From Planctomycetota bacterium (GTDB lineage: Bacteria; Planctomycetota; UBA8108; UBA1146): 64,000 nucleotides of DNA. Positions 2,113 to 54,672 of this stretch are shown piece by piece; positions within the stretch are counted from its first letter, which is position 1, and each line of letters starts with the position of its first letter. Location of the stretch: assembly GCA_965661685.1 (NCBI GenBank), contig CBFIET010000056.1, positions 19,465-83,464 on the forward strand. The letters run 5' to 3'. Both the position numbers and the translations under genes were made by a program. The notes below the pieces were generated by a model, which worked only from the letters and a program-made list of their open reading frames with translations, did no database searches and was not told the DNA's origin.

Positions 2113-2638
2113 TGGCAGGAGTTGGCCAGCGGCGGTAACGGTCAGTTTCTTGTTCTATTCATCCAGGTAGTTGCAACCGTTGTTGCAGGTCTCCTCGACG
2201 GTCACCTCTTGAAGTCCGCATGATTGCTGAGTTGGGCCAGATTAATCTGGAGGAAAAAGCCTCAGCCGGGAAAAGCGCCCCGGGCGTGTGTGGCGCTTTG
2301 CAACCAGAAGTCGATTTCGGCGGTGTTTTTGGCCTGTTGAGCCGGGGTATATCTTCAGGTAGGCTGCAAAGAGGATCGATTTGAGTGGTCCTTTGGTGTG
2401 TTTGAAAGTTGAAAGAGTCATGAATTTGGGAAAGCGTAGATAATGACGCCTATGACCTACTCCTCGTTATTGTTGGTGGAGACATGCGCTGTTGTCGTCG
2501 TCTCATCGATAGCAGTGAATACGTGATACCTCTTCTTCACTGCTGCTTCCGGGGATTTCTTCAACCAACTAAAGCATCACCAGTCACACTTCGAATCTGC
2601 TCTGCGTTGCCAGGTATCGCACCGGAAGGATACGGATC

Positions 2639-3226: not shown

Positions 3227-4671
3227 TGCCGATTCTGATGCAATCTAGCACCGAAGGTCTTCAAAATATCATTGGCATTGTAGTTCTTGTTGTCTCGCTT
3301 TTCGGCTTATTGATCGCTTTCGCCAAGCGTTACCGCCGCTGTCCATCCGACAAGATCCTGGTGATCTACGGAAAATGGATCGGTAGCGGCGCGGTAGGTG
3401 CCTCGGCGAAGTGCATCCACGGCGGAGCCGCGTTCATCTTCCCCATCCTCCAGGATTACCAGTACCTCGATCTGACTCCGATTCCCATCGACATCAACCT
3501 GCAGGGAGCGCTCTCCCAGCAGAACATCCGCGTGAACACACCTTCGACCTTTACTGTCGGTATCTCTACCGAATCAGGCGTCATGGAAAATGCTGCCGAA
3601 CGCCTGCTCGGGCAGTCGCCGATGGAAGTGCAGGAACTGGCCAGGGACATCATCTTCGGTCAGATGCGTGTGGTCATCGCCACCATGCCGATCGAAGAGA
3701 TCAACGCCGACCGTGACAAACTGATCGACAACATCTCCAACGGCGTTGAGGTCGAACTGAAGAAGGTCGGCCTCAGGCTGATCAACGTCAATGTCCAGGA
3801 CATCACCGATGAATCGGGCTATATCGACGCCCTCGGCAAGGAAGCTGTGGCGCGGGCGATCAACGACGCCAAGATCAAGGTCGCAGAACAGACCCGCTCT
3901 GGTGAGATCGGAAAAGCCAATGCCGAACGGGACCAGCGCATCAGTGTCGCCGCTGCCACGGCGACAGCGGTCGAAGGCGAGAACACCGCCCAGATTACCA
4001 TCGCAAAATCGGACGCCCTCCGACGGGAAGCGCAGGCGGAAGCAGAACGTGTAGCGATAGCAGCCGAGAAGGTCAAGTCTGCCCAGGCGCTTCAAGAAGC
4101 CTACGCCTCCGAGCGCACCGCCGAGACGGAACGCGCCAACCGCGAGCAGGCCACCCAGTACGCCGACATCGTCGTCCCTGCCGAGATCGAGAAGCAACGC
4201 ATCGTGACCCTGGCAGAGGCCGAGGCAGAGAACATCCGTCGCGTCAAGAAGGGCGAAGCCGATGGCCTGAAGTTGATGCTGGTCGCCGAGGCTGATGGTA
4301 CACGTGCCATCCTCACTCAGAAGGCGGAAGGCTTCCGTGACCTGGTCGCCTCTGCCGACAACAATCCCGAGTACGCTTCGATGCTGATGATCACCGAGAA
4401 ACTGCCGGAACTGATCGCTGAACAGGTCAAGGCGATCCAGGGCATCCAGATCGACAAGGTCACCGTCTGGGACAACGGCTCCGGATCGAAGGCGAACGGC
4501 AAGACCGCGACCGCTGATTTCCTGAGCGGCATGGTCGGCTCGTTGCCGCCCCTCCACGCGGTCGCCAAGAGTGCCGGCCTCGAATTGCCCGGTTACCTCG
4601 GCAGCACCTCGAGCAGTGGCAACAGCGAGACTCCGAACAGCGAGACCCCGAGCGAGCCCCCGGAGGAATAA
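3223..4671 (+). CDS. Flotillin (SPFH/band 7) family protein, FloT-like
   Basis: N-terminal TM, SPFH domain (RYRRCPSDKILVIYG, EEINADRDK, GLRLINVNVQDITD), AE-rich coiled coil. Confidence 0.9.
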   Translation: MMPILMQSSTEGLQNIIGIVVLVVSLFGLLIAFAKRYRRCPSDKILVIYGKWIGSGAVGASAKCIHGGAAFIFPILQDYQYLDLTPIPIDINLQGALSQQNIRVNTPSTFTVGISTESGVMENAAERLLGQSPMEVQELARDIIFGQMRVVIATMPIEEINADRDKLIDNISNGVEVELKKVGLRLINVNVQDITDESGYIDALGKEAVARAINDAKIKVAEQTRSGEIGKANAERDQRISVAAATATAVEGENTAQITIAKSDALRREAQAEAERVAIAAEKVKSAQALQEAYASERTAETERANREQATQYADIVVPAEIEKQRIVTLAEAEAENIRRVKKGEADGLKLMLVAEADGTRAILTQKAEGFRDLVASADNNPEYASMLMITEKLPELIAEQVKAIQGIQIDKVTVWDNGSGSKANGKTATADFLSGMVGSLPPLHAVAKSAGLELPGYLGSTSSSGNSETPNSETPSEPPEE

Positions 4672-4819
4672 CCCCCCGCCGCTCGATGTAAGTCTCTCTA
4701 CTGCACCGCCAACCGAGTTTGTCCAGCGTCATTTTCCGCTGATCCCGATGCCGGGGACTCATCGGCTTCGTTGGCTCGATGGGACAAGGCAACCGAGTTA
4801 CCGCTGGGGCAGGAGCACG

Positions 4820-5482
4820 ATGATCATCGAGGTGGAATCTCATCCTCTGCTCGATCCGCTGGCGATCGGTGCGGAACTTGCCGGGCCACAGGGAGAGCAG
4901 AGTCCCGAGTGGTTAGAGCCACTGCTGACCGCCGCTGCTGGCCCTGAATCGGTCGATGAACAGTGTAAGAAGCATATTCGAGCTCTGTAGAGGCATGGTG
5001 GGTACCGTCCTGCGGGTCGTGGCAAACCCTCCAGCGAGTGGCTGGTGGCGGCGGCCGCGCGGGGGGCGTTGCCTTCGATCTTGCCGCTGGTCGATGTGGG
5101 GAATGCGGTCTCTCGCAGCGCGGGAATCCCACTCAGCGTGGTCGACCTCGATCGGCTGGAGGGGCCGCTGAAGATCTCGCTGGGAAGTGCCGGAGAGAGT
5201 TACATCTTCAACCGTTCCGATCAGCAGATCGATCTGGCCGGCCTGCTGTGCCTCATCGACGGGGAGGGGCCCTGTGCCAATGCGGTCAAGGATTCGCAGA
5301 GGACCAAGACCGATGAAAGCACCTCCAGGGTGCTGATCGTGGTGTGGGGGAGCCTCGAACTCCCCGGGGTCGCCGAGCAGCTGGCTGCCAGGGCCCGTGA
5401 GGTGATCGAGAGGCTGGGAGGGGCAGTCACCGGGGTGCAAATCCGCCCAGAGGAGGATCCGGAATCACTGCAAACCGGTTGA
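4820..5482 (+). pseudogene. B3/4 domain gene, copy 2, full length but with in-frame TAG at codon 57 (4988-4990)
   Basis: AGGAG SD and ATG 4820; IRAL*RHGG aligns to IRTLLRHGG of copy 1; the same frame continues to TGA 5482. Confidence 0.8.
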
Positions 5483-5560
5483 AAGAGGCACTAGAATAGT
5501 ACCTTGCCATTCGGTGACCGCTCACCGGATTCGCGGATCAGAGAAAGTCAGGAGGCTCCG

Positions 5561-6814
5561 TTGCCCTTCGCCACACCTCAGGAACTGATCGATGAGATCG
5601 CCCGTGGTGGGATGGTCATCCTCATCGACGATGAGAATCGTGAGAACGAGGGTGATCTCGTCGTGGCTGCGGAGTTGATCACCCCGGAGCAGGTGAACTT
5701 TCTCGCCACCCATGCCAGGGGATTGATCTGTGCGCCATTGGGGAGCGAAATCGTCGACCGACTCGATTTACCGCAGATGCTGGAAGAGCCGAGTGAGCCG
5801 GATGAGTGCGCCTTCACCATGTCGGTGGATGGTCGCGATGGGAACTCCACGGGGATCAGTGTCTTCGATCGTGCCAGGACACTTCGACTTCTTGCCGATC
5901 CAGGATCGGTTCCTGCAGATTTCAATCGACCGGGACACATCTTTCCACTCAAGGCGCATCCACAGGGGCTTGCCAGTCGCCAGGGGCATACCGAAGCATC
6001 GGTTCACCTGATGCGGTGTGCCGGCCTACAGCCGGCTGCGGTCATCTGCGAAGTGATGAATGAAGACGGATCGATGGCACGATCCCCCGATCTACTGCGA
6101 TTTGCCGACGAGCACGGCCTGCTCATCGGCACCATCGAGAGCCTGATCGAGGAGCACCGGGGTGGAGAGGTGATCGCCTCCCCGTCCACCGTTGAAAAGA
6201 CGCTCGCGGCCTGCGAGGTGAGATCTCTTTCCAGCGCTCAACTTCCCACTCCCTTCGGGATCTTCGAGATCGAGAGCTGGAGTGCCGGGAGTGGAGAACC
6301 GATCACCGTGTTGAGACAGGGCAACCTGGGTCACGTGGAGGGGGAAGAAGCTCCGCTGGTACGAGTTCACTCCGCGTGCTTTACCGGCGATGTACTCGGT
6401 TCTCTTCGGTGCGATTGTGGTGCGCAACTTCACATGGCGCTGGAGGCGATCGGTTCCCGGGAGCGAGGAGCCTTGCTGTACCTTCCACAGGAAGGTCGTG
6501 GAATCGGCCTGGCCAGCAAGATCGAGGCGTATCATCTGCAGCAGATGGAGGGTCTCGATACGGTGGAAGCGAATGAACGACTGGGATTCCCTCCCGACCT
6601 GCGGGAGTACCTGGAAGCGTCTCAGGTCCTGCTCAAGATGGGGGGAAGTCGCATCCGCCTGCTCACCAACAATCCAGCCAAGGTCGAAGGACTGGTGGCA
6701 GGAGGAGTGGAAGTGGTGGAACGCATTCCCATCGAACCGAAGCCAGGACCGGTGAATCTGTCGTACCTCCGGGCCAAGAAGGACAAGCTGGGACACCTCT
6801 TCGAGGCGATTTGA
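5561..6814 (+). CDS. ribBA: Bifunctional DHBP synthase / GTP cyclohydrolase II
   Basis: DDENRENEGD, RPGHIFPL, GHTEAS; RVHSACFTGDVLGSLRCDCG, QEGRGIGL, LLTNNP; start uncertain (5504 or 5561). Confidence 0.95.
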   Translation: MPFATPQELIDEIARGGMVILIDDENRENEGDLVVAAELITPEQVNFLATHARGLICAPLGSEIVDRLDLPQMLEEPSEPDECAFTMSVDGRDGNSTGISVFDRARTLRLLADPGSVPADFNRPGHIFPLKAHPQGLASRQGHTEASVHLMRCAGLQPAAVICEVMNEDGSMARSPDLLRFADEHGLLIGTIESLIEEHRGGEVIASPSTVEKTLAACEVRSLSSAQLPTPFGIFEIESWSAGSGEPITVLRQGNLGHVEGEEAPLVRVHSACFTGDVLGSLRCDCGAQLHMALEAIGSRERGALLYLPQEGRGIGLASKIEAYHLQQMEGLDTVEANERLGFPPDLREYLEASQVLLKMGGSRIRLLTNNPAKVEGLVAGGVEVVERIPIEPKPGPVNLSYLRAKKDKLGHLFEAI

Positions 6815-6920: not shown

Positions 6921-8252
6921 CTAGTTACAACCTGCGGTGTCGTATCCCGGGCAGTCGAGGGTGTCGTCGGTCGGGTCGATGCCACATGTGCTGGGACCCG
7001 GCGCTGGAGGCTCGGTGCCACCGGCGAAGATGTAGTTGAGGACCGAGATCGCATCGGAGATGTCCACGCCACCGTCGTCATTGGTGTCGACGGCGTCGAG
7101 GCAGTCGGACGGAACTGCCTGGAACAGGTAGCTCAGGGTTCCGATGGCGTCGGAGATGTCCACCATGGTGTCGCCGTTGACATCGCCACGCTTGAAGCGC
7201 TCTGGCAGGCACATGCTGGTGCAACTGGCAGGGGCGAGGGCCTCACCACAGCCACCGGTTCCACCGATTTCCATCGTGTAGTTGACGAGTTCGGCGGGGA
7301 GAACGTAGGTGGTGGTGGTGGCGGTTCCGGGCATCGATGAGATCAGAGCGCCGTCGACGCTGAGGCTCAATCCCTGGTAGCCAGGATCGTTATTGGTCCA
7401 GCTGAGGGTGACGGTGCAGGTCTCGTGATCGATGGTGCAAGTCAGGTCAGAGGGTCCAGCGGAATCAGGAGTCTGCGAACAGGTTCCACTCCCGGAGGCA
7501 GTTGCTGAAGCCTGTCCGTTGCGAATCCCCACCACATCATAGCTGGCGGCAACTCCGTCGGAGAGGGAGATGGGCATGCTGCTATCGGTGCCGGCAAGGA
7601 CAACGGTGGAACCGTTGTGGGTCACCTCGAGGCTGTCGTAGGCGTCTCCGTTGGTCCAGGAAAGGGTGCCCGCACAGGTGCAAGCGTCATCGACGGTCAC
7701 CGTGACACCGGTCGGCGCAGGCGTTTCGATGGTGAGAGATCCGTGGTCGAGGATCGGCTGCTGGGAGATTCCACCCACCGAGATCACACAGTTGACCGTG
7801 GGGCTGCCAAGGCTGTTGACGAAGGTGAGACCAGTCGTGGTTCCGGGACTCGCGGTACCGGCGAGGCTGTACTGAATCTGCGCCACTTCACTGGTTCCGA
7901 CAGGAATCGATTCCAGGGGAGGAGCGAGACTGACGATGGCACCGACCACCACGCCGATTCCACCGGTCGGGGTGAGTTCGAAGTGGAAGTAGTCCGCTCC
8001 ACTGCCGGCGTTGCTGGAGGCGAGACCGCTTCCTTCCGACACGAGAACTGCCGTCAGCAGTGTCGAGTCGTGTGACAGACCCAGTTGGAATCCCTGCGCT
8101 GGGCTGGGAGTCTCTAACTGGACGGAAACGGTGACAGAGGAGCCTGGCAGTCCTGCAGTAGCAGGAGCATGGAGGGCATAATTTTGTCCCTGAAGTGTGT
8201 TAACTGTGCAAAGGAGACAAAATGCTCCCAACAATATCTTCCAGTTCAGCAT
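6921..8252 (-). CDS. Secreted protein with cohesin-like/Ig-like/FN3-like domains and C-terminal dockerin-like module
   Basis: SD GAGGAAGG before ATG 8252; signal peptide; FKRGDVNGDTMVDISDAI..DAVDTNDDGGVDISDAI paired Ca-loop repeats. Confidence 0.8.
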   Translation of the reverse strand: MLNWKILLGAFCLLCTVNTLQGQNYALHAPATAGLPGSSVTVSVQLETPSPAQGFQLGLSHDSTLLTAVLVSEGSGLASSNAGSGADYFHFELTPTGGIGVVVGAIVSLAPPLESIPVGTSEVAQIQYSLAGTASPGTTTGLTFVNSLGSPTVNCVISVGGISQQPILDHGSLTIETPAPTGVTVTVDDACTCAGTLSWTNGDAYDSLEVTHNGSTVVLAGTDSSMPISLSDGVAASYDVVGIRNGQASATASGSGTCSQTPDSAGPSDLTCTIDHETCTVTLSWTNNDPGYQGLSLSVDGALISSMPGTATTTTYVLPAELVNYTMEIGGTGGCGEALAPASCTSMCLPERFKRGDVNGDTMVDISDAIGTLSYLFQAVPSDCLDAVDTNDDGGVDISDAISVLNYIFAGGTEPPAPGPSTCGIDPTDDTLDCPGYDTAGCN

Positions 8253-8334
8253 CTGAAACTTTCCTTCCTCGCTGTGATTTCGGGATGTGCAGAGACCCGA
8301 GGTCCATCGATCACCGGAACGGCGACCTTGGTTA

Positions 8335-8385
8335 TTGACCATTCTATTGTCAACGGGTGCATTTACTAGCGTCTGCAATGTAAAT
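8335..8385. promoter_or_regulatory. AT-rich upstream region with two inverted repeats (possible operators) and a TTGACA hexamer
   Basis: TTGAC-N9-GTCAA (8335-8353) and ATTTAC-N13-GTAAAT (8361-8385); minus-strand TTGACA at 8353-8348; no convincing -10 found. Confidence 0.35.
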
Positions 8386-8581
8386 AAAAAAGGACTTACA
8401 GGCACTATTGACAGCCGTGGCGGTCAGGTCCGACAGAGGAAGATATCCGTCAGTGATGATCGGTGTCGTTGGACCGGTGAGTCGGAAAAATTTACCGGTA
8501 GAAGAGATGCGCAAGAGGAAGAGCAGGGGAGAAGCAGCTGGGGAGGATCATTCGAGGGGCCCCGAGGGGCCCCTCTCCACA

Positions 8582-9400
8582 TCAATTCGGGATCTGAATC
8601 GTCGAACCGACAGGCATCGCATTGATGTTGCCGATGGTTCCCTCGTTGGCGGAAGCGATGTCGCGCCAGCGTTGCCCGGTGCCATAGAAGCGCTCCGACA
8701 GGGACCACAGCGTGTCGCCCTGGCGCAGTCGATAGGTATTGGCCCCGGCATCGAGGGCGGACAAGGTCTCGATGGGATCGGCGGCAGGAGGAATCGAAGT
8801 CACCTCGGCATCATCGATCTCATCCCACCCGGACATCTCGTCGATGGATGCGGTCTCCGGTGCGATCGCCTCCAGTTGTGCATACTCCGACGGGTCCGCT
8901 CCACCCAGTGGGATAGGAATCACCATCAACGGGTACAGGGTTCGTTCTCCGTTGACCTCTTCGTAACGCCAGAAGGGAAAGAACCAGTTGCCATGACTCT
9001 CTTCTCCGGCGCTGGTGAGGGCGCGACTCTCGGTCGTGCCGGCGATCCACAGGGGACCGGCACTGACTCGCTCACGAGCGACGGCAACCCCTTCGACCTG
9101 CTGGGTGGTGGTCATGTCGTAGGCGAGTAATCCGCCGAGTACTGCCATCCCTTGCTGATCCTCGCCTCGCGATTGCCAGGTTCCCGCTGCCATCGCTGCG
9201 ATGTCGGCGGGACCCACTGCCGAGTCGATCGGTTGATTGCGATCGGAGGGTGCGGTGGCGCAGCCGACGACACTGATCAGCACCGCAGCGATGAGCAGCG
9301 GCAGTGGCCACCTTCTCGAGGATGTCGAAGGAAGAATTCGGGATGAGCCACGGCAGAAGTCCGCCGTGGACCGGTGATGAAGTTGCTGTTTTCTGTGCAC
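8582..9400 (-). CDS. LysM-domain lipoprotein
   Basis: Lipobox-like ISVVGC; C-terminal LysM YRLRQGDTLWSLSERFYGTGQRWRDIASAN..GSTIQIP; true start probably downstream of 9400. Confidence 0.8.
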   Translation of the reverse strand: MHRKQQLHHRSTADFCRGSSRILPSTSSRRWPLPLLIAAVLISVVGCATAPSDRNQPIDSAVGPADIAAMAAGTWQSRGEDQQGMAVLGGLLAYDMTTTQQVEGVAVARERVSAGPLWIAGTTESRALTSAGEESHGNWFFPFWRYEEVNGERTLYPLMVIPIPLGGADPSEYAQLEAIAPETASIDEMSGWDEIDDAEVTSIPPAADPIETLSALDAGANTYRLRQGDTLWSLSERFYGTGQRWRDIASANEGTIGNINAMPVGSTIQIPN

Positions 9401-31312: not shown

Positions 31313-31588
31313 ATGTCCGAAAAGCCGTCGATATTGCTGTACAGTGCCACCTGGTGCCCCGATTGCACCCGGGCGATTCGATTTCTCGAGGAGCACTCCG
31401 TCCACTTCCAGAAGGTCGATATCTCCGAGGATCCGCAGGCCGCTCAACTTCTCGAGGAGAAGACGGGCAAGCGTGGGATACCGTTCCTGGTGGCGGGGGA
31501 TCAGTGGGTTCGAGCGTACACCCCAGGTGGGGGCCCCTTCCCCGCCGATGAAATTCTAGAAGCGGTTCGCTCCTACCAGGAGGACTGA
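31313..31588 (+). CDS. Glutaredoxin/NrdH-like redoxin
   Basis: YSATWCPDC active site, RGIPFL cis-Pro motif; AGGAGG SD. Confidence 0.9.
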   Translation: MSEKPSILLYSATWCPDCTRAIRFLEEHSVHFQKVDISEDPQAAQLLEEKTGKRGIPFLVAGDQWVRAYTPGGGPFPADEILEAVRSYQED

Positions 31589-31592
31589 GCCG

Positions 31593-34466
31593 ATGAGGAG
31601 CCCGTCGATGCACAGGATGTTCGCCCTCTTCTCGCTGATTCTGTTGCTCAGCGCGTTTCCGTTCGTGACCGGCACCTCGACGGTGTTCAGTCAGGATCCC
31701 TTCGATTTTGATGCGATCGGCTTCGATGATGATGCTCCCGTTACTTTTTCCGCCGAGGAGGTGAAGGGAGCAACCGCAGGTTCCGATGTGGTGGTCAAAC
31801 TGGTCGCCACCATCGAACGTGGGTGGCACATCTTCTCCTTCGACAGCGATCCGGAACTGGGGATTCCCACATCGGTGGTGCTGGTCGGTGCCGGAGATCT
31901 CCAGGCTCTCGAGCCGATTCGCGAGCCGAAACCTCACGAGCGTGAGGATCCTCTCGTCGGTGGTTCCATCCTGGAACATGTCGGTCGTGCCCAGTTCGAG
32001 ATTCCACTCAAGGTTCCTGCCGATGCGAAAGAGGGGCCGAGGAAGATCCTCATCGACATCACTTACCAGGCGTGTGATGCCAAGCAGTGTCTTGCGCCCA
32101 CCGTCGCCACGGTGGAAACCACCGTCACCGTCGGAGCGATGGTAGAGGAGCCACAACAACCGGCGGTGAAGACGCTGGTGGTCAGTACCACTGCAGAAGG
32201 TTCACCGGTGAAGTGGACGGCAACCGGAGTGTCGGAGATCGAAGCGGGGCAGACTGTCGAGGTAGAGATCGTGGCTGCCATAGAACGTGGCTGGCACATC
32301 TACGGTGTCGATCTCGATCCGCAGGTGTCGGGGGATCCCACCACCTTCTCGATTCCGCAGGACCACCCCTTCACCATCGGCAAGGTGGTGGAGGTGACCC
32401 CCGCCAGACCGAGGAACGACCCTGTCGCCGGGGGCCTGATCGTCGAACACATTCGCAAGGCGGTTTTCCGCCTGCCCGTGACGATTCCGGCGACGATCCC
32501 CGAAGGGATCGAGCGACTGCCGGTGACGGTGGCGTACAACGTGTGTGATGCGCAGATCTGTCTTCCTCCCGAACGGGTGACGCTGGAGATTCCACTGCTA
32601 CAGGAATCGCTGACCGATTCAACTCCCACGGCGCACCAGGGAGCGGTCGAGGTCTCGCTGATGCAGGAGGTGGATGATGGAGATCTCCGCATCGAGGCGG
32701 GATTCACCGCCCTCAAGGTGCGGGCAGGGGATCCGATCGGCTTCTCGCTACAGGGATCGGTGCAGGAGGGGAAGAGAATCCCCGCCATCCGCAACGACAC
32801 CCGCGGTGCCGCCGAGCAGGCGGGACTGCTCGGAATCATCGTGCTCTCCTTCGGTGGCGCACTGGTGGCACTGCTGACCCCCTGTGTCTATCCGATGATC
32901 CCCATCACCGTCAGTGTCTTCACCAAGCAGGCCCACGAGAGCCGTTCGAGGGTGCTGTGGCTGGCGGGATTGTTTGGCGGAGGGATCGTCGCATCGTTCA
33001 CGGCACTGGGCTTCCTCCTGTCCGCCTTGCTGGGGGAAGAGGGGGCCAACTTCATGGCCACCAACGGATACGTGAACCTGGCCATCGGTCTCCTCTTCGT
33101 CATCTTCGGATTCAGTCTCTTCGGCTACTACGACATCCAGTTGCCGGCGTGGCTGCGCAACCGGGTCGGTGGTGGCGGAGGTGGTGGAGCCGCCAGCGTG
33201 CTGGTGATGGGACTCGTCTTCAGCGTTACCACCTTCACCTGTGTCGGCCCCATCGTCGCCTTCCTGCTGGCACTGGCAGCGGGGGAGGGCCCCGGCTTTG
33301 CTGCGGTGGGAATGCTCGCATTCAGTACCACCCTGGCGATTCCGTTCGTGATGCTGGCTCTCTTCCCCAAGGCGTTGACCGGTTTACCACGATCCGGTGG
33401 CTGGCTGTCGACGGTGAAGGTGATCCTCGGATTCATCGAACTGCTGGCGGCCTGGAAGTTCTTCAGTGCGGTGGCCACCTACTGGAAGTTCGGAGAAGTG
33501 GTCAACCGCGAGGTGATCATGGCGATCTGGGGTCTGACGCTGGTCGCACTGGCACTGAACCTCGTCGGGAAATTACGATTCCCGCACGATTCCCCGGTCA
33601 CGTCGATCTCCTTCGGCCGTGGATTTCTGCTGGCACTGACGGTGACCAGCGCATTCAGTTGCTTCTATGCCACCACCGGCTGGCGTCTCAACGAGAACCT
33701 GGAGGCGCAGCTGCTGGTCCCGAGTGTCCATGCAAAACAACACCTTCCGTGGACGATTCTGGATCGGGATCATCCCCTCGACTTCCGCGAGCAACTGACC
33801 TTGCTGAAGGAAAAATCGCAGGAGGGGAGCAGTACCCCGAGACCGATCTTTCTCAACTTCACCGGCCACACCTGACAGAACTGCAGGCTGATGGAAAATG
33901 GAATTTTCCTGGAGCCGGAAGTCGAGCAGTTGCTCGGCCAGTTCGAACTACTCGAGATTTACAGTGACGATGCCACCAGTGAGGTGGAGGAGAAGTACCG
34001 TGCTCATCAGATCGAGTACTCCGGCTATTACGCAAACCCCACCTACATCGTGCTGGACAGTGCTGACCATCTGGAAGTGGCGAGAGGATCGTTCACCAAC
34101 AGTTCCACCGAGTTCGCCGACTTCCTGAAGGAGGGACTCCTCGATCGTCCCGCCTTCGAGAGTCGTATCCAGCTCGATGGGCTCACCTTCGAGGAAGAGG
34201 GTCATGAGGTGGAGGTGCTGTCCCGGATCAAACCGTGGTCCTTCGCTGGACAGGTCGATAGTCGCTACCGCGACGAGGAGGTGAAGGAACTCGCCTCTAC
34301 CTTCGAGGCCTCTACCACGTTCCGCGTCGGTGACGAACTGGAGGCGGGGGATTACTTCATCCGTCTCCGTTTCGTCGGTGGACTGTACCGGGGAGACGAG
34401 CGGATTCGCACCTTCTCCCTCCCCCTCAAGTTGAAGCTGCAGGTCGAGGCACCACCGAAGATCTGA
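31593..34466 (+). CDS. dsbD: DsbD-like thiol:disulfide interchange protein, candidate selenoprotein (U761 from TGA 33873-33875)
   Basis: Signal peptide; two N-terminal Ig-like domains (YQACDAKQC, YNVCDAQIC); TM domain LTPCVYPMIP/FTCVGP; Trx domain FLNFTGHT-TGA-QNC-RLMEN continuing in frame to TGA 34466; hairpin follows the TGA. Confidence 0.88.
33886..33916 (+). promoter_or_regulatory. Putative bacterial SECIS element of the dsbD-like gene
   Basis: GGCU-gau-GGAAAAU[GGA]AUUUUCC-ugg-AGCC; apical loop starts with G, 24 nt after the UGA. Confidence 0.7.
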
Positions 34467-34621: not shown

Positions 34622-35212
34622 GTGCAGATGCGAGAGATGGAGATCGATGGAGAGGGTTGCCGGGGGAGCGAGCGACAACCACGAAACAGAAGATGGCCCT
34701 GGCAACGGATGACGATGGTGCTGCTCCTGGGAGGGGCATTACTGATCAGTGTCACGATGCGGGAGATGTTGCACGGCCAGGCGGGCGGCGGCGGGGTCCC
34801 GGCGGACCTCGGTTGCGAAGCGGAATGTCCCGGGGTCGGAACCGATGTGAGGGGGATGCGACAGACCCTCTCTCCGGTGTCGAACTCCTGTGAAGGAACG
34901 GCGCTGCAACTGCTGCTCGACCAGCTTGATATCGAGGTGGATCTGCCAGCGGATTCATGTCCCGCCTGGGTTGTCATCGAGCCGGAGCGACGGCTCCCGA
35001 CACAGATCGATGGTTGCTGTCTGATCTCCCGCGAGGACCTTCCGGTGTTTCAGCAGAAGATGCGGTGTCGCTGCACCCGTCGCTTCCTCGTCTGCTGGGA
35101 TCAGGATTGCCTCCCCGATGGAGAAGCGGTGCAGTTGACGTCGCTGGCCAGCTGGGTCGCATCCCCCTGTGCCGGTGGTCAGGGCATCCTTCCCTGCAAC
35201 CGGGGGAGGTAA
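34622..35212 (+). CDS. Cys-rich secreted or membrane-anchored hypothetical protein
   Basis: Hydrophobic segment VLLLGGALLISV, then 12 Cys; stop lies 1 nt before the next ATG; start uncertain. Confidence 0.55.
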   Translation: MQMREMEIDGEGCRGSERQPRNRRWPWQRMTMVLLLGGALLISVTMREMLHGQAGGGGVPADLGCEAECPGVGTDVRGMRQTLSPVSNSCEGTALQLLLDQLDIEVDLPADSCPAWVVIEPERRLPTQIDGCCLISREDLPVFQQKMRCRCTRRFLVCWDQDCLPDGEAVQLTSLASWVASPCAGGQGILPCNRGR

Positions 35213-39678: not shown

Positions 39679-40344
39679 TCAGTCAGCGATCAATTGATCG
39701 AGCTGGTCGACCCACAGGTCAGGTTCCGGTGGAGATGCCGTGCCGTAGCCACCGCGTCGCCCGATGGTGCGAACTCCCGCAGCGATTCCGGTCGAAAAAT
39801 CGACGGCAGAATCTCCCACCATGACAGCATCCCGTGGGGCACATCGTAATCGTTCGAGGATTCCGAGCAATCCGCTCGGATCCGGTTTTGGTATCCCGAC
39901 GTCCTCGGGTGAGACCACCTCTGCCCAGGGACCGTGTAGATCGAGGCGAGGACGCAGCGTTGCGGTGACGCGGCGAGGCTTGTTGGTGAGGATCGCTACC
40001 GGTGTCTGACGATTCCGTAGATGGTCGAGGAGTTCTATCGATCCCGGCAGCCAGCGGATATCCCTGGAGGAATCCTCTGCGATCTGACAGTAGATCGCCA
40101 TGAACTGCTGGTACTGATGCTCGACACTCTCTCCATCCTCGAGGATGTCGGAGAGGATTCTCTGGCACAGTACCCTGGCACCATCTCCCACCGCAGCCCG
40201 CACCGTATCCGTGGAATGTAGCGTGGCGGATCGAGATTCCCGTAGCCGATTGACCGCCTCTGCGATGTCGCCGATGGAGTCAATCAGCGTTCCATCGAGA
40301 TCAAAAACGATGCAGCCGCTCGGGAGGGGGAGTGGATTGTTCAT
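39679..40344 (-). CDS. HAD-superfamily phosphatase (phosphoglycolate phosphatase-like)
   Basis: FDLDGTLIDS, LTNKP, KPDP, MVGDS; ATG 40344 overlaps the upstream stop. Confidence 0.9.
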   Translation of the reverse strand: MNNPLPLPSGCIVFDLDGTLIDSIGDIAEAVNRLRESRSATLHSTDTVRAAVGDGARVLCQRILSDILEDGESVEHQYQQFMAIYCQIAEDSSRDIRWLPGSIELLDHLRNRQTPVAILTNKPRRVTATLRPRLDLHGPWAEVVSPEDVGIPKPDPSGLLGILERLRCAPRDAVMVGDSAVDFSTGIAAGVRTIGRRGGYGTASPPEPDLWVDQLDQLIAD

Positions 40345-42347
40345 ACTGCGGTAGGTGATTGCCCCGAGGGTCGTGTGTACGAATCCTTGTCGAAGTAACG
40401 GTGAAGAAGAGAGATGACGATGATGACCGTCTCCAGCGCATAGAAGATGTAAAGGATGCTCTGAATGCCATCGGTGAAGCCATAACTGTGCAGCCCGACG
40501 CCGAGGAGATTTACACCCCACCAGGAAAAGGCCACGATGATGGCATTGATGAGGACCAGGATGTGGAGACCCTGCTCGCGGATGAACCCACTCATGCGGG
40601 CGTGAAGGATCACCAGTTCTGCGAGACAGATCATCAGGGCGCCATTCTCCTTTGGATCCCATCCCCAGAATCTGCCCCAGGAGTAGTTGGCCCAGATCCC
40701 TCCCAGGATGGTGCCGACGATGCTGAAGAAGAGCCCGAAGCAGATGGTTCCGTAGACCATGCGAGTGATGCTCCGATAGAAATCACCATCGCCTTTGCGG
40801 AATCCGGTCAACTTCCCCAGCAGCCACACGTGCGAGATGGCCGCAGCCAGCAAACCTGCGGAGTATCCAAGGGTTACCGAGGTGACGTGGGTGGAGAGCC
40901 AGAAGTTTGTGTCGAGTACCGCGACCAGGCTCGGCATGGTGTCTCCCGCGGTGACCGCCTCCTTCATCTCGTACTTGATGGAAAGGAAACAGCCGATCGA
41001 TCCGAGCACCGTGGCCATCGTCAGGGCGATCTGGCGTCGATCGAAACGCTCGATGAAGAGCGCTGTCAGGACACAGCAGGCGGTGATGAAGAGGATCGTC
41101 TCGTAAAGGGTCGTGACCGGGGGACGTCCCTGGATGACACAGCGAATCGTCACTCCGACCACCAACAGGATCAGTCCCAGCAGGCTGAAGGTCCAGCTTC
41201 CCCGGCTGGAGAGAGGTGAATCGGGTTTCATCCAGCCGAGACAACTGATCACGAAGGCGAGCATGAAGCAGATCAGTGCCTTGAAGAAGAAGTCCCACCG
41301 ATAAAAGGTGGTTTCCAGTGAGACGTACTCTCCCTGGCCATGGTTGGTTGCCAGTGCCATCAACATCGATTGAACCTGGATCGCCTTTTCCTTGAAAGCA
41401 GGTCGATCGTCACGTAGTGCGACCATCTCTTCGATAGCCTGCAGAGCTTCCGACTGACGTGGCTGGGCATTCATCGTCAGGGCAGATTCGAGAATCCCAT
41501 CGGTGCGGCTCCAGATGGGGGGAGGCGCATCCTTTCCCGTCTGGACCTGCTCGGGAGCGAACCATGCGATTCCCCTGCGAGCGATCTGCAACTGGACCAC
41601 CAGTTGGGAGCGAAGGTCATCGAGAATGGCGATCACCTCGGTCTGACGCTCTTCTGGTAACTCCCGTAACTTCTCTGGATCGGTCAGGTTGGCGAGACGA
41701 TCGACTCCGGCGATCAACGGTGAGAATCCTGGTCGGGGTTCGACCCCGAACACCTCCTGAAACTCGGGTGCCGTGAACAGTGGAAGCTGATTTCGGGCAG
41801 AATCGAACCCGTACAGCAACTCCTCCAGACTGCCGAGATTCTGTGCGAGTTGCACCGTCTGTCTTTCGACGACACTCCAGGTCTTTGAATCCTTGCTGTT
41901 CTGGATACGACTGGCACTGCTGAAGATCTCATCGAGAACCGGGGCCAGCTGATCGTAACTCCAGCGAGAACTTCTCTTTCGCCCCGAGACATCGAGCCCG
42001 ACCGAGGTGAGAACTTCTGCGTTGGAAACCAGAATGCACGGGTAGGTACGGGCAATTTCGGGGTACAGCAAGAAATCGAGGGCCCAGGCGGTTGGCCCCA
42101 GCTTGTCTCCGGCGATGGTCACCGAACGCTTGCCGTTGATCTTCAGCATGGTGAAGCCGGCGAAGGTGCCGAACGGCTTCACTCGACCCCCGTGTTGAAG
42201 GGGCCAGCGAGCGATGCAGTCGAGCGTTTCTGTATCCCAGGAGGCTCGACTCCTGGCAGTGTTTTCTTCGACTGCCGCGTCTTGACCCTCCACCGCAGCA
42301 GGGATGACCAGAAGCAGCATGGCGAGAAGAGAAACAAGACACCTCAT
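40341..42347 (-). CDS. ccsA: System II cytochrome c synthase, CcsA/ResC family, with large periplasmic N-terminal domain
   Basis: STHVTSVTLGY, GGIWANYSWGRFWGWDPKEN (WWD domain), LHAR, GVGLHSYG. Confidence 0.92.
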   Translation of the reverse strand: MRCLVSLLAMLLLVIPAAVEGQDAAVEENTARSRASWDTETLDCIARWPLQHGGRVKPFGTFAGFTMLKINGKRSVTIAGDKLGPTAWALDFLLYPEIARTYPCILVSNAEVLTSVGLDVSGRKRSSRWSYDQLAPVLDEIFSSASRIQNSKDSKTWSVVERQTVQLAQNLGSLEELLYGFDSARNQLPLFTAPEFQEVFGVEPRPGFSPLIAGVDRLANLTDPEKLRELPEERQTEVIAILDDLRSQLVVQLQIARRGIAWFAPEQVQTGKDAPPPIWSRTDGILESALTMNAQPRQSEALQAIEEMVALRDDRPAFKEKAIQVQSMLMALATNHGQGEYVSLETTFYRWDFFFKALICFMLAFVISCLGWMKPDSPLSSRGSWTFSLLGLILLVVGVTIRCVIQGRPPVTTLYETILFITACCVLTALFIERFDRRQIALTMATVLGSIGCFLSIKYEMKEAVTAGDTMPSLVAVLDTNFWLSTHVTSVTLGYSAGLLAAAISHVWLLGKLTGFRKGDGDFYRSITRMVYGTICFGLFFSIVGTILGGIWANYSWGRFWGWDPKENGALMICLAELVILHARMSGFIREQGLHILVLINAIIVAFSWWGVNLLGVGLHSYGFTDGIQSILYIFYALETVIIVISLLHRYFDKDSYTRPSGQSPTAV

Positions 42348-43549
42348 CGTGCACTCTCCTTCACTTTGCTCGTTTGCTTCTTGCTGTAGGCGAGAAACTT
42401 CTGGATGAATGTGATGGCCATACCGACAGCGATGACGATGCATGAATAGAGTGGCCACTGGTCTGATGGATTGCGAACCACCGAGAAGACACTGAACAGT
42501 TCATCCTCCGGGGCGGCATTGGATGGTCCCCAGCTAGACTGGAACAGGATGAGCCCCTGATCTCGTAACGGATCGTTCATCTCGATGCGGATCTTGCGCT
42601 GGTCCCCATCCTTGACCTGGGTCACATCGCTGCGGAATTCCTTCGCCATGGCGATTCCCGGGTGATCGACCTTTTCGAAGTTGTCGAGGCGGATCGAGTA
42701 GGGCATCGAGTAGCGAACTTTCCTCAGTGCTACGGCATAGATCTCGTCGTCGAGGGAGAAGGTCCACGGGAATTTCTCCCCACCCCAGAGAAGTGCAGTT
42801 TTCTTGAGTCCAGCATCGTTGGAGACCTCCACCACCATGCCGGGGAGGTTCTGCTCATTTTCAGGATTGAGTTGCGATTCGAGCAGGGCCCACCCATCCA
42901 CCTCTTCCGAGGAAGGAGTCCATCGAGGTCCGACAGGCTGGGGGGAGCAGTTGATCAGGGGCGTTCTCACCTGCAACTGGAAAGGGGTCTCGGTGGTGGA
43001 ATCGATGGTCAGTGGAGCACCATTCAACCAGCGAGATTGGTGAACACGATGCTCGTGGATCTCGGCCTGATCGGGATTGGTCTTGAAGACGGCCAGTTCC
43101 CAGTGGTGGTGACTGATATATTCCGCCGCCTGCTGAGTTTCCCACAACCTGAGGTAACCCTCATCGGAAGCCTTCAACTTCACAAGGCCCGCCAGCATCA
43201 TGATGGCGATTCCAACATGGATGATGAAGATGCCGATGGTTCTACGGTTGACCCTCAGCCGCAAGACACCGCCGACCAGCAGGTTGATGGTGAAGCAGAC
43301 CATGCACAGAAGACCCCCGGGGAGTGGGACCGGAATCTGCAGTGAGAAGACGTTGAAGGTGTGGATCAATCCCCACGATTCGAAGTATGTTTTCTGGACC
43401 TTGTAGAGGCCGTGTTGCGCCTGCTCAAGTGTTCCGAGAAAGGTCAGCAGGAGCAGCAAGGCCATCAGCACCGCTGCCACCTTCTGGCTTCCCAGAAACT
43501 TCAGGAATCTATCGATCAATCGGGTGAGATCGTCTCTGTCCTTGCTCAC
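42344..43549 (-). CDS. ResB/CcsB-like cytochrome c biogenesis protein
   Basis: FLGTLEQ, three TM with conserved His (IIHVGI), PYSIRLDNF, MNDPLRDQG; coupled to ccsA. Confidence 0.85.
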   Translation of the reverse strand: MSKDRDDLTRLIDRFLKFLGSQKVAAVLMALLLLLTFLGTLEQAQHGLYKVQKTYFESWGLIHTFNVFSLQIPVPLPGGLLCMVCFTINLLVGGVLRLRVNRRTIGIFIIHVGIAIMMLAGLVKLKASDEGYLRLWETQQAAEYISHHHWELAVFKTNPDQAEIHEHRVHQSRWLNGAPLTIDSTTETPFQLQVRTPLINCSPQPVGPRWTPSSEEVDGWALLESQLNPENEQNLPGMVVEVSNDAGLKKTALLWGGEKFPWTFSLDDEIYAVALRKVRYSMPYSIRLDNFEKVDHPGIAMAKEFRSDVTQVKDGDQRKIRIEMNDPLRDQGLILFQSSWGPSNAAPEDELFSVFSVVRNPSDQWPLYSCIVIAVGMAITFIQKFLAYSKKQTSKVKESAR

Positions 43550-44703
43550 CGGACCACCTCCAGCGAAGTGGCCAGTTGCATCATCAACGGTCGTGCGGTT
43601 TCCATCTCATCGATGGGGCCGACCATCTTCACGAAGACTGCGCGGTCGGGAAGGATCCGGATGAGACCTATCATCTTCCAGTTCTCCTTCGGTGTACTCC
43701 CCATGCTGGAGTAGGGACCGACCCCTTCGATCACCAGGGCGTCGTCACCCAGCATCGGTTCGGTGGCGAGTTGTGCGAGTTGCTCCTCTTCGAGGGGGTC
43801 TAGGCTCAACTCCTTTCGCCAGCGGTTGGCGTTGGCCAGTGCCCCGCCTCCATCTCCGCCCAGCACCGTGATCCAGCAACGGGTTTCCTCGCCGGCGACA
43901 AAGGTCACTTCGCGCATCGGCTTCGGAGGGTCGATGGTCCAGCCCTCGGGTACCTGCCAGGAGAGGGACGAGGATGGCGTTGGAGATTGCTCTGGTGCCG
44001 CCGCTTTTCTTTCGAGCCGGATGGAGGAGGTGAAGTTGGAGAGCGCATCGCTCTGCTCCGTTAGTAGCGATCGGGGACCGATCGCTTTCAGGAACAGGGT
44101 GCTCTCTCCAATAGGCAGAAGATGAACTACCATGCGCGCATCTTCGACTCTCCTGCCAGTGAAGGAATCGGTGTAGGTGCCGTCGACCTGGAAGAGAGAG
44201 GAGAGTGCCCCCAGAAGTGGAACCTTGGGAAGGGCGGTCAACTCTTCATCGGTCGGTGGAGTCGCTTCCATCTGCTTGCACCAACGATCGATGTTGTCCC
44301 GTAGCGAACCTCCCCCGGGAATCACGGTGAGATAGCACTCCGCAGAGCGATCGCCAGCGATCAGCAGATTGATGTGGCGCATCGAGGTGGGTGCGACTTC
44401 AACCCAGCCTTCGGGCAGTTGATATTCCAGGGTCGGGGGAGCTTGAGCGGTATCCTGAGACGGTGGCTGTTCACGACCGAATCTGCGGGCGTCGGTGGCT
44501 CCTGGAAGAATCGGATGGACAACCTCGGGAATGATCCGGACGTCGTCATAACTTCCGTCTGATTTTCTGGTTCCATCACAGGAGCAGAGACAGAGGCAAC
44601 TGGTGATGAGCAAGAAGAGGCTGGCGAAGAAATTCTTCGAGCAGTCGATGGAATCACCACCGACTGCCGAGAATCTCCGTGTACTGCGTAGTCCGCAATT
44701 CAT
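43546..44703 (-). CDS. Lipoprotein with duplicated domain, upstream of resB-ccsA
   Basis: Lipobox-like CLCSC; two repeats of P.GW..MR..C.(L/I)T..GG...N..RW; start 44703 or 44763. Confidence 0.7.
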   Translation of the reverse strand: MNCGLRSTRRFSAVGGDSIDCSKNFFASLFLLITSCLCLCSCDGTRKSDGSYDDVRIIPEVVHPILPGATDARRFGREQPPSQDTAQAPPTLEYQLPEGWVEVAPTSMRHINLLIAGDRSAECYLTVIPGGGSLRDNIDRWCKQMEATPPTDEELTALPKVPLLGALSSLFQVDGTYTDSFTGRRVEDARMVVHLLPIGESTLFLKAIGPRSLLTEQSDALSNFTSSIRLERKAAAPEQSPTPSSSLSWQVPEGWTIDPPKPMREVTFVAGEETRCWITVLGGDGGGALANANRWRKELSLDPLEEEQLAQLATEPMLGDDALVIEGVGPYSSMGSTPKENWKMIGLIRILPDRAVFVKMVGPIDEMETARPLMMQLATSLEVVR

Positions 44704-44710
44704 CGTCTGA

Positions 44711-45037
44711 TCATCCCTCGAGAGAAGTGAGTTTTTCCTCGATGGATGGCTTGGGGTGGGCACCCGATAACTTGTCTACTACTTCGCCATCTTTGAAGAA
44801 GAGCAGCGTGGGTACTCCCTGGATGCCGAATTTCACCGCCAGACCCTGCGCCTGATCGATGTCGACCTTGCCAACCTTGATCCCTTTTTCGGCGAATTCG
44901 TCTGCCAGTTGCTCCACGACAGGTGCGATCGTCTTGCAGGGTCCACACCAGGTGGCGTAGAAATCGAGCATTGCGGCTCCCTTGCTGATCTCCGAGTCGA
45001 AGTTGCTGTCATCGATGGTCAATAAGTTCCCGGTCAT
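44711..45037 (-). CDS. trxA: Thioredoxin
   Basis: DFYATWCGPC, GIQGVPTL; AAGGAG SD. Confidence 0.97.
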   Translation of the reverse strand: MTGNLLTIDDSNFDSEISKGAAMLDFYATWCGPCKTIAPVVEQLADEFAEKGIKVGKVDIDQAQGLAVKFGIQGVPTLLFFKDGEVVDKLSGAHPKPSIEEKLTSLEG

Positions 45038-46712: not shown

Positions 46713-47534
46713 TCAGAGGCCGAGGCGGGATCCTCCGCTGTAGCAGTTGAGCCCACTGCTTCCGGCAAATCCGCACAGAATCATGCCGGTGGCGCGCGCG
46801 GTCTCGATGGCCAGTGAAGAGGGTGCGCCCACCGCGACGAGGGCACTGAAGCCGGCGACCGCTGCCTTCTGTACCAGTTCGAAACTGGCGCGTCCGCTCA
46901 CGGCACAGACCAGTTCGCTGGCGGGAAGAAGAGTGCGACTGGACAGCCCTCCGATCAACTTGTCGAGGGCGTTGTGGCGTCCCACATCTTCTCGAACCAG
47001 TAACGGCTCTCCATCCAGTTGCCAGGCTCCAGCGGCGTGGACACCACCGGTACTTTCGAAGAGACCCTGGGAGGCGCGGAGTTGATCGGGGAGGGAACTG
47101 AGCCAGTCGGGATCGATCTGCTGCTCACCGCGGGTTTCGGGAATCTTCCCCACCACATCCTGGATGCGGGTCCGTCCGCAGATTCCACAGGCACTGGTGC
47201 CGGCACTACTCCTGGAGTAGGCATCGATGTCGACGACGGCACCTTCCTTGAGGATCACCGTCACGACATTCAGGGGTTCCTCTGCACTTCCATCGGTGCA
47301 ATGAGTGACACCTGCCGGGGACTCGTCAGAAGCGAGGATTCCCTCCGCCACCAGGAATCCGATGGCGAGGTCGAAATCGTTGCCTGGGGTTCTCATGGTG
47401 CTGGTGATCTGTTCGTCGCGACTGGCTCCACCTTCAGTCCAGCGTACCCTCACCTCCAGCGGTTCTTCCACGGCGATCTCGTCGAGACCTCGAGGGGGAC
47501 GACCGGGACGGGTTCGACGTACCGGTAGCCTCAT
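46713..47534 (-). CDS. fdhD: Formate dehydrogenase accessory sulfurtransferase FdhD
   Basis: EEPLEV, MRTPGNDFDLAIGFL, SACGICG, TGGVHAA, EDVGRHNALDK, SGRASFELVQK; start 47534 or 47582. Confidence 0.93.
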   Translation of the reverse strand: MRLPVRRTRPGRPPRGLDEIAVEEPLEVRVRWTEGGASRDEQITSTMRTPGNDFDLAIGFLVAEGILASDESPAGVTHCTDGSAEEPLNVVTVILKEGAVVDIDAYSRSSAGTSACGICGRTRIQDVVGKIPETRGEQQIDPDWLSSLPDQLRASQGLFESTGGVHAAGAWQLDGEPLLVREDVGRHNALDKLIGGLSSRTLLPASELVCAVSGRASFELVQKAAVAGFSALVAVGAPSSLAIETARATGMILCGFAGSSGLNCYSGGSRLGL

Positions 47535-47652
47535 CGATGGCCGACCAGGCGGCGAAGAGGAAGGTGGTTGTGCGTCAGTCATTCCGGTTCCATCCCGTCG
47601 GAGTCGCCAAGCTGACGACTTCCGGCAGGATAACGGTCAGGAGGGCACTCTC

Positions 47653-53748: not shown

Positions 53749-54672
53749 ATGGCTCGTGATGTTGTGATCATCGGATCTGGACCTGCTGGATACACGTCGG
53801 CGATCTACACCGGTAGGGCACAGTTGAATCCGCTCGTCTTTGCAGGCTCTCTCAGTGGTGGTCAGTTGATGCTCACCACCGATGTTGAAAATTACCCGGG
53901 GTTTCCTGAAGGCGTGATGGGGCCAGACCTCATGGAGAACTTCAGGAAGCAGGCGGAGCGATTCGGTGCCGAGGTGGTCTATGAAGACGTGATCGAGGTC
54001 GACTTCTCCAGTCACCCCTTCAAGATCAAGAGTACCGCCCAGGAGATCGAGGCGAAAACCGTCATCATCTCCACCGGAGCCAGTGCCAAGATGCTAGGAC
54101 TTGAATCAGAAAGTCGCTTGATGGGGCATGGGGTCAGCACCTGTGCCACCTGTGACGGGTTCTTCTTCAGGGATCAGGAGATCGCCATCGTCGGTGGCGG
54201 GGATTCCGCCATGGAGGAGGCCACATTCCTCACCAGGTTTGCAAGTAAGGTGACGGTGATTCACCGCCGAGATTCCCTGCGAGCTTCCAAGATCATGCAG
54301 CAGAAGGCGATGGACAATCCCAAGATCGAGTTCATGTTCGACTCTGCAGTCACGGAAGTCCTCGACAGCGATGACAAGGTGAGTGGTGTCGTCGTCGAGA
54401 ATTTGAAGTCGGGCGAGAAGAGTACTGTGGACCTCAGTGGCCTGTTTGTTGCCATCGGGCACACCCCCAACACGCAACTGTTCGAGGGAAAGGTAGACCT
54501 TCATGACAACGGATACATCCGCTGTCAGGAGGGGGCCAAGACCAGCGTAGAGGGTGTTTTTGCCTGTGGGGACGTGCAGGATTTCACCTATCGTCAGGCG
54601 ATCACTGCGGCGGGGAGCGGGTGCATGGCGGCGATCGATGCAGAGCGCTGGCTGGAGCATCACCTCTCCTGA
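53749..54672 (+). CDS. trxB: Thioredoxin reductase
   Basis: IIGSGPAG, GGQLMLTTDVENYPG, CATCDG, VGGGDSA, RQAITAAG. Confidence 0.98.
   Translation: MARDVVIIGSGPAGYTSAIYTGRAQLNPLVFAGSLSGGQLMLTTDVENYPGFPEGVMGPDLMENFRKQAERFGAEVVYEDVIEVDFSSHPFKIKSTAQEIEAKTVIISTGASAKMLGLESESRLMGHGVSTCATCDGFFFRDQEIAIVGGGDSAMEEATFLTRFASKVTVIHRRDSLRASKIMQQKAMDNPKIEFMFDSAVTEVLDSDDKVSGVVVENLKSGEKSTVDLSGLFVAIGHTPNTQLFEGKVDLHDNGYIRCQEGAKTSVEGVFACGDVQDFTYRQAITAAGSGCMAAIDAERWLEHHLS

Follow-up and report, generated by a model that had tools for sequence, protein, structure and literature searches.

The selenoproteins met most often in bacteria have a thioredoxin fold with selenocysteine (Sec, U) in the first position of a UxxC motif. 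In such folds it is the residue at this position that is exposed and nucleophilic, and Sec, with its low pKa, surpasses cysteine both as a nucleophile and as a leaving group. A family of thiol:disulfide interchange selenoproteins is said to have been recognized by Kryukov and Gladyshev in 2004, and the UxxC type has reportedly been catalogued ever since. The subject of this report is a gene of the DsbD family in a 64-kb stretch of a Planctomycetota contig (CBFIET010000056.1; 59% G+C), the whole of which we call the window. Positions 31593–34466 very probably form one gene, in which an in-frame UGA, codon 761, encodes selenocysteine. To judge from the sequence, this Sec would almost certainly stand in for the cysteine that is exposed and acts as the nucleophile in the gamma domain, a thioredoxin-like domain of the periplasm.

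Described relatives

In a 2026 review the ‘Thiol:disulfide interchange protein’ family is represented by WP_011366075.1 of Geobacter metallireducens, a PF13098 protein with a UxxC motif (PMC13188914), and the Global Ocean Sampling (GOS) survey contains what is probably its marine counterpart, ‘Trx-like 2, cd02953’ (PMC2398784). An earlier, sequence-only reading of the window had taken Sec-containing thiol:disulfide proteins to be known in general, and in view of the catalogued Geobacter-type UxxC family it was right. Sequences of this family, taken from the supplement of PMC1794560, share with the window protein a domain of the Thioredoxin_2/Thioredoxin_7/DsbH group—both match PF13098, PF13899 and PF03190—and a motif in which Sec comes first in UxxC and is followed by [KR]-x-M-[DE] (LLDFFNPGUIGCKQMD in Geobacter, FLNFTGHTUQNCRLME in the window). 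BLASTP sets U upon U, in an alignment of 92 residues with 23% identity (E = 0.003). The protein of Geobacter is soluble, however, some 190 residues long and composed of the Trx-like domain and a TPR-like tail, with neither DsbD_N nor a membrane domain, whereas the window protein would be a membrane protein of 957 residues with the organization alpha-alpha-beta-gamma and no TPR. The domain cd02953 we take to be the CDD entry ‘DsbD gamma’.

A single DsbD-related selenoprotein, TsoB, appears in the 2026 catalogue, among whose 119 families a full-length DsbD selenoprotein is not listed (PMC13188914). TsoB (NF045694, rhodanese/DsbD fusion-like) has the DsbD membrane core in common with the window protein, and its model matches residues 401–629 of the latter and no others (120.6 bits, against a cut-off of 805). 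It differs in possessing a rhodanese domain and two Sec residues, in a UxxxxU motif. The predicted window protein is outside this family, and it is outside the catalogued Geobacter-type family as well. Literature searches on DsbD, CcdA and DipZ selenoproteins, and on selenoproteins of Planctomycetota, returned no prior description of the architecture.

Among proteins that use cysteine, the E. coli type of DsbD has the same order of domains, the same cysteine pairs in the membrane core and in alpha, and the gamma domain on the same side as alpha, where it probably lies in the window protein too. The window protein departs from it in having Sec for the first gamma cysteine, two alpha domains instead of one, and an extra, beta-rich C-terminal domain of about 100 residues. 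Its nearest Cys homologs are members of a ‘DsbD family’ from Bacteroidota, Acidobacteriota and others, 27–35% identical over the whole protein. These share the active-site context (DFTGxxCxNCRxME) and the Pfam set, and a gamma-like domain of this group, from Bacteroides, has a solved structure (PDB 3F9U); they differ in that the residue is Cys (TGY), that no excess RNA structure follows the codon, and that they are shorter. The gene is real and unannotated; a Sec-containing DsbD is no conceptual surprise, and is of the type that a specialist would expect.

An in-frame UGA in a DsbD-family gene

The complete coding sequence, on the forward strand at 31593..34466, specifies 957 residues including Sec761, followed by a stop codon. 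A Shine–Dalgarno sequence, AGGAGG, can be read at 31578..31583 on the same strand, 9 nt before the ATG at 31593. From this ATG 760 sense codons lead to the in-frame TGA at 33873..33875 (forward strand; residue 761, read as selenocysteine), and 196 more sense codons follow in the same frame, to the TGA at 34464–34466. The segment before the first of these UGA codons is PRPIFLNFTGHT, and QNCRLMENGIF follows directly upon it, so that the surroundings read PIFLNFTGHT-(UGA)-QNCRLMENGIF. TGA ends some 40 of the 55 open reading frames (ORFs) called in the window, from which we take the genetic code to be standard, with no reassignment. When the whole window was scanned for read-through candidates by G+C content at third codon positions (GC3), this gene was the sole convincing one. 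A homology scan of the window's ORFs for in-frame stops aligned with other residues was swamped by spurious frames, and gave no usable result.

The sequence-only reading had the coordinates, the UGA in the middle of the active site, the extension of 196 codons and the hairpin 10 nt further on exactly as we find them. It had foreseen, too, that annotation would break the gene in two, and public records do show, in its place, a ‘cytochrome c biogenesis protein CcdA’ of ~750 residues and a ‘hypothetical protein’ of ~190. No record carries the window's own 760-residue product with exactly that sequence. At least 64 species-level genomes of Planctomycetota have a gene of this family, which is entered everywhere as a shortened ‘CcdA’ and a separate ‘hypothetical protein’, and a model of the whole would correct many records.

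Conservation of the UGA and of the frame behind it

When 5.8 billion proteins were searched, the top 27 matches to the window protein (95% to 37% identity), Planctomycetota wherever they are named, all proved to lack the thioredoxin domain. For 20 of them the sequence was inspected, and every one ends at F[LIV]NFTGH[TVNI], exactly before the position of the UGA. Homologs below ~35% identity, from Bacteroidota, Acidobacteriota and others, have the thioredoxin domain. With the part after the UGA as query, the search recovered only ‘hypothetical proteins’ of ~190 residues from Planctomycetota that start at the internal Met; no full-length Cys form was among the matches to this part.

The DNA is in keeping with the proteins. 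Among loci found by protein similarity alone, the four closest (L001–3 and L006) have TGA, followed by xNCRxME, and the others have TGC or TGT at the Sec codon. In at least 32 Cys-form homologs, which come from Bacteroidota and other phyla, the codon of this column is TGY, within DFTGxxCxNCRxME, and so the relatives with DFTG..CxNCR.ME to which the sequence-only reading had appealed do exist. One genome per species was also scanned for the DNA pattern N-F-T-G-H-x-TGA-x-N-C. Sixty-five loci were found, of which 64, nearly all from Planctomycetota, are genuine homologs with an open, conserved frame after the TGA; one of them is in Engelhardtia mirabilis Pla133, a cultured strain whose genome is complete. 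Where a locus includes the end of the gene, 85–209 sense codons follow the TGA. Had no homolog shared the TGA, the same reading would have fallen back on a nonsense mutation. In the event 64 species-level genomes share it, and distant homologs have TGY instead.

Two conserved residues lie outside the search pattern. Arg at codon +4 occurs in 54 of 55 sequences, written with five synonymous codons, and Glu at +7 occurs in all 55, as GAA in 28 and GAG in 27. The Arg lies before the only downstream AUG, the Glu just after it, and the retention of Arg between the UGA and the first AUG implies that this stretch is translated.

Two architectures can be told apart among the 56 Sec loci whose gene end was readable. 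In 25 loci, the window included, the thioredoxin domain is followed by a tail, making ~190–210 residues after the Sec; in the other 31 there is a plain gamma domain, 63–107 residues. The window is a member of what we call subfamily A; subfamily B is short-tailed. Two of the loci carry unexpected labels from their submitters. L089 (QNYK01000104.1) is a UGA-DsbD locus designated ‘Bacillota bacterium’, and its 74% identity to the window gene and shared synteny suggest a mislabeled bin. L119 (JAFMMO010000271.1), a UGA-DsbD locus of the Planctomycetota type, is designated ‘Proteobacteria bacterium’.

The hairpin downstream of the UGA

A hairpin of 31 nt (33886..33916, forward strand) begins 10 nt after the UGA and resembles a bacterial selenocysteine insertion sequence (bSECIS). 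It can be written GGCU-GAU-GGAAAAU-(GGA)-AUUUUCC-UGG-AGCC, and has a lower stem of 4 bp, a 3x3 internal loop and an upper stem of 7 bp. Its minimum free energy (MFE) is –11.3 kcal/mol, with z = –3.14 against dinucleotide shuffles, only one in 200 of which folds as well. The bSECIS model calls for an apical loop of 3–9 nt, an upper stem of 4–16 bp, a G within the loop's first two positions, 16–37 nt between UGA and apical loop, and an MFE of –7.5 kcal/mol or lower (PMC13188914). The window hairpin lies within every one of these limits: its loop is GGA (3 nt), its stem 7 bp, the G is present, and the spacing is 24 nt. An Rfam scan of the window at the gathering threshold gave no match.

Whether such structure is more than a by-product of the coding sequence can be judged across the family. 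Over the 55 nt after the codon, mean z against mononucleotide shuffles is –2.25 for the Sec forms (n = 60) and –0.07 for the Cys forms (n = 32), a difference with p = 6.6e-9. Under a synonymous-codon null, in which the protein sequence and the codon usage of the individual gene are preserved, the mean z is –1.42 for the Sec forms, 23 of 51 lying at or below 5%, versus –0.29 for the Cys forms, with 4 of 32. The structure thus significantly exceeds what coding requires across the family, though not for the window sequence alone. With columns counted from the U of the UGA, the upper stem (columns 21–27 with 31–37) is paired in nearly all sequences, and three pairs covary: 18–40 (GC/CG), 25–33 (GC/AU) and 15–43 (GC/AU). 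Subfamily B has, in addition, a long lower stem that begins directly after the UGA.

Selenocysteine machinery in the lineage

Complete Sec gene sets are on record for four Planctomycetes (PMC4807772). A GC-biased pattern for the pyridoxal-phosphate motif of SelA detected SelA genes, including one in a Planctomycetota metagenome-assembled genome (MAG), and that protein, as query, brought up further SelA loci of Planctomycetota, L267 and L268 among them; a search with a profile of these SelAs returned about 90 clusters of Planctomycetota-type SelA. Eleven SelA contigs were looked up for shared MAG membership, and in three MAGs SelA occurs together with a UGA-DsbD: CAYFGE01, where locus L268 (CAYFGE010000001.1) has SelA and L103 (CAYFGE010000010.1) the DsbD; JACNJP01 (L290 and L125); and CAZWVI01 (L303 and L130). 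In locus L267, from a Planctomycetales MAG, selA, selD and tRNA-Sec(UCA) stand in a row at 3001–5563, the tRNA gene at 5466–5563. From this cluster, the co-occurrences and the published gene sets we conclude that the lineage decodes Sec.

The order of genes around SelA recurs in L267, L273, L274, L283 and L284: PolA, a VTT-domain protein and RecJ, and on the opposite strand SelA and SelD (AIRS/AIRS_C), then NfeD.

Local tblastn was also run with E. coli-type SelA, SelB and SelD queries, approximate in sequence but valid: the SelA query matched 119 of 120 SelA-pattern loci among the matches listed, and the SelD query is 57% identical to a genuine SelD. No sel gene was found by these three queries next to any UGA-DsbD locus. 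A match at locus L104 was rejected, as it proved to be FeoB. That FeoB, on a Planctomycetota contig (2114–4319, complementary strand), is present as two overlapping ORFs in different frames, 2784–4319 and 2114–3082, possibly through a frameshift or an assembly error. In L056, from a Bacteroidia MAG, a selD gene (8118–9146; 57% identical to E. coli SelD) lies within ~500 bp after a Cys-type DsbD homolog.

Weighing the explanations

A number of results weigh against selenocysteine at this UGA. The window contains no selA, selB, selD or tRNA-Sec, within the 64 kb to which that search was confined, and a tRNA scan of the same 64 kb found no tRNA. The three pairings of SelA with a UGA-DsbD depend on MAG binning, and all three are in the short-tailed subfamily B rather than in the window's own subfamily A. 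SelB is in none of the Planctomycetota loci retrieved, and is not adjacent to the others in the recurrent SelA–SelD loci. The Sec machinery on which the sequence-only reading had staked its case has thus been found in part: as SelA in three MAGs with the UGA gene and as the L267 cluster within the lineage, and not within the window. That TGA, Asn and Cys do not vary among the 64 loci is in part a consequence of the search pattern, which required all three. Under the synonymous-codon null the hairpin of locus L137, identical to that of the window, lies at the 16th percentile, much of the hairpin following from the peptide M-E-N-G-I-F; its SECIS-like character is borne out by its agreement with the bSECIS model and by the excess of structure across the family, the excess in the window's own sequence not being significant. 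RNAalifold, finally, gave no single consensus structure over 55 distinct sequences, since the subfamilies differ in the register of their lower stem; the pairs described above were counted on a stated structure, by subfamily.

What else could the UGA be? Viewed in a single sequence, a lone in-frame stop in a long gene looks like a nonsense mutation, a pseudogene, or a sequencing or assembly error of one contig. The identical TGA recurs, however, across 64 genomes that were assembled independently, as well as in dozens of protein clusters from metagenomes (37–95% identity), and a codon so widely shared is not a mutation. The frame behind it shows no decay, distant relatives have Cys in its place, and the hairpin goes beyond codon choice; comparative data have, in short, already refuted this explanation, and we give it practically no credence. 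The UGA might instead be a true stop. The gene would then end as a DsbD without a gamma domain (alpha-alpha-beta), and the ~190-codon ORF would start from the AUG at 33891, or be untranslated. Gene callers do split the locus everywhere into a ‘CcdA’ of ~750 residues and a ‘hypothetical protein’ of ~190, there is an AUG 5 codons past the UGA, and CcdA-type proteins without a gamma domain occur in nature. But the AUG is the internal Met of the NCRxME motif, which is found in Cys forms, too, and from UGA to AUG the codons vary synonymously while Asn-Cys-Arg is retained, which would not be expected of an untranslated spacer. Translation begun at this Met would give a thioredoxin fold that lacks the first strand and both active-site residues, and a SECIS-type hairpin with compensatory changes sits at that very site. 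We regard termination here as very unlikely.

The UGA might also be read through, but by something other than selenocysteine—a near-cognate tRNA for Cys or Trp, perhaps, or some other kind of programmed read-through stimulated by the hairpin. Hairpins 3' of a stop codon can stimulate read-through in general, and the evidence for Sec machinery comes from related MAGs rather than from the window's own genome. Against this, the position is that of the catalytic Cys of CxxC, where Sec and Cys are classically exchanged; the geometry of the hairpin is that of a SelB-type bSECIS, with a G in the apical loop and 24 nt of spacing; and SelA accompanies the UGA gene in the same MAG three times. Inefficient read-through at an essential relay residue, moreover, is hardly likely to have been kept in at least 64 species when TGY is but one mutation away. 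We find this explanation highly improbable, and prefer selenocysteine. On that reading the hairpin would recruit SelB-GTP-Sec-tRNA(Sec) to a ribosome paused at UGA761, and Sec would be inserted instead of termination taking place.

Protein architecture and electron transfer

For protein searches the UGA was treated as Cys. The domains found are, from the N-terminus, and all on the forward strand: a signal peptide or hydrophobic segment, residues 1–27 (31593..31673), with a hydropathy peak at residues 9–27; a first DsbD_N (alpha-type) domain within the approximate limits 31740..32132; a second such domain, residues 216–330 (32238..32582); the DsbD_TM membrane core, residues 415–625 (32835..33467); the thioredoxin-like gamma domain, residues ~740–860 (33810..34172), with the active site U761-Q-N-C764; and a C-terminal extension of ~100 residues (34173..34463), predicted to be all-beta and present in 25 of the 56 Sec loci with a readable gene end. 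PF11412 is reported in two stretches, of which the second domain is the best, with 44.5 bits (cut-off 25). The membrane core matches PF02683 (82.3 bits, cut-off 27.1).

Judged over 21 homologs, the cysteines of the presumptive relay are invariant: C161 and C166 in the first alpha domain, C318 in the second (C323 is nearly so), and C431 (TPCVYPMIP) and C550 (TFTCVGPI) in the membrane core. Simple hydropathy gives seven clear membrane segments and one weaker one at ~676–697, the hydrophobic segments thus continuing beyond the core to ~697. This is compatible with a layout of eight transmembrane segments, in which alpha and gamma would lie on the same side.

The match to Thioredoxin_7 spans the UGA and, at 23.9–26 bits, is slightly below the 27-bit cut-off. 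PDB 3F9U, the Trx-like domain of a Bacteroides ‘exported cytochrome c biogenesis-related’ protein, matches the gamma domain with E = 1.3e-6, and U761 aligns with the first Cys of its DFTGYGCVNCRKME; that Cys homologs match PF13899, PF13098 and PF03190 further supports a thioredoxin-like assignment. A Pfam search with the C-terminal ~100 residues found no family. The fragment after the internal Met, modeled with 22 homologs, gave a poor structure (predicted local distance difference test, pLDDT, 53), for which Foldseek found nothing in PDB at E ≤ 0.001. At the level of the whole protein, the NCBIfam scan produced no model that recognizes it; the DsbD model, NF001419, scores 138.9 bits and falls short of its cut-off of 330, which places the protein in the broad DsbD family and not in the E. 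coli-type subfamily.

The electron path of E. coli DsbD is the model for the order of the relay that we propose. By analogy, electrons would start from cytoplasmic NADPH and pass by way of thioredoxin reductase to a small cytoplasmic redoxin, for which a CPDC glutaredoxin-like protein, encoded next door and described below, would be the obvious candidate. From the redoxin they would proceed to C431/C550 in the membrane, on to U761/C764 in the gamma domain, and thence to the alpha pairs, C161/C166 and C318/C323. Periplasmic clients, such as the System II machinery for cytochrome c maturation, would be the final acceptors. The Sec residue would take part in both exchanges of the gamma domain—with the membrane domain and with alpha—and might be expected to speed up both. 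A natural Sec variant of the relay is a ready probe for the rate-limiting step of DsbD, and for what Sec offers over Cys. With it, the selenium requirement of marine Planctomycetota also extends to a redox function of the envelope.

The neighborhood of the gene

Locus L137, in a MAG labeled uncultured Planctomycetia, is the window's close counterpart, with neighbor-gene proteins 86–98% identical. Immediately upstream of the DsbD gene, at 31313..31588 on the forward strand, is the gene for the glutaredoxin/NrdH-like protein just mentioned (91 residues, CPDC active site, no signal peptide; Pfam Glutaredoxin, 56.3 bits; a YruB-family match in NCBIfam). Its stop codon is 4 nt 5' of the DsbD start, and a glutaredoxin-like gene lies directly 5' of the UGA-DsbD in 14 subfamily-A loci. 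The two genes are probably co-translated, and the protein is a candidate for the cytoplasmic electron donor to DsbD. It also matches, weakly, the NCBIfam models for ‘Uxx-star’ glutaredoxin-like selenoproteins; it has Cys, and an ordinary C-terminus.

On the other side, at 34622..35212 on the forward strand, is a conserved ORF of 196 codons whose product would have 13 cysteines and one N-terminal hydrophobic segment. It matches nothing in Pfam or NCBIfam, and follows the UGA gene in 21 loci. Its product may be an exported partner, client or substrate of the Sec-DsbD, a membership suggested by synteny. One could go further, and see in this block—glutaredoxin-like protein, tailed Sec-DsbD and 13-Cys exported protein, in a subfamily A without a Cys form—a dedicated, obligately selenium-dependent reducing pathway of the periplasm in marine Planctomycetota, with a donor and a client to itself, in place of a general DsbD. 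We consider this rather unlikely as it stands; if true, redox homeostasis of the envelope, or the maturation of cytochrome c, would in these bacteria be coupled to the supply of selenium.

Genes for System II cytochrome c biogenesis lie 6–10 kb from the DsbD gene, on the complementary strand: a Cytochrom_C_asm/CcsA/CcsB-like gene at 40341–42458 and a ResB-like gene at 42344–43549, with an unassigned 405-residue ORF beside them at 43546–44763. A thioredoxin-disulfide reductase is encoded on the forward strand at 53749–54672. System II genes and a thioredoxin reductase make a neighborhood that fits the usual role of DsbD, the provision of reducing power to the periplasm. The window also encodes FdhD, the accessory sulfurtransferase of formate dehydrogenase (46713–47582, complementary strand), a hint that the genome may hold, outside the window, a formate dehydrogenase, an enzyme that is often a selenoprotein.

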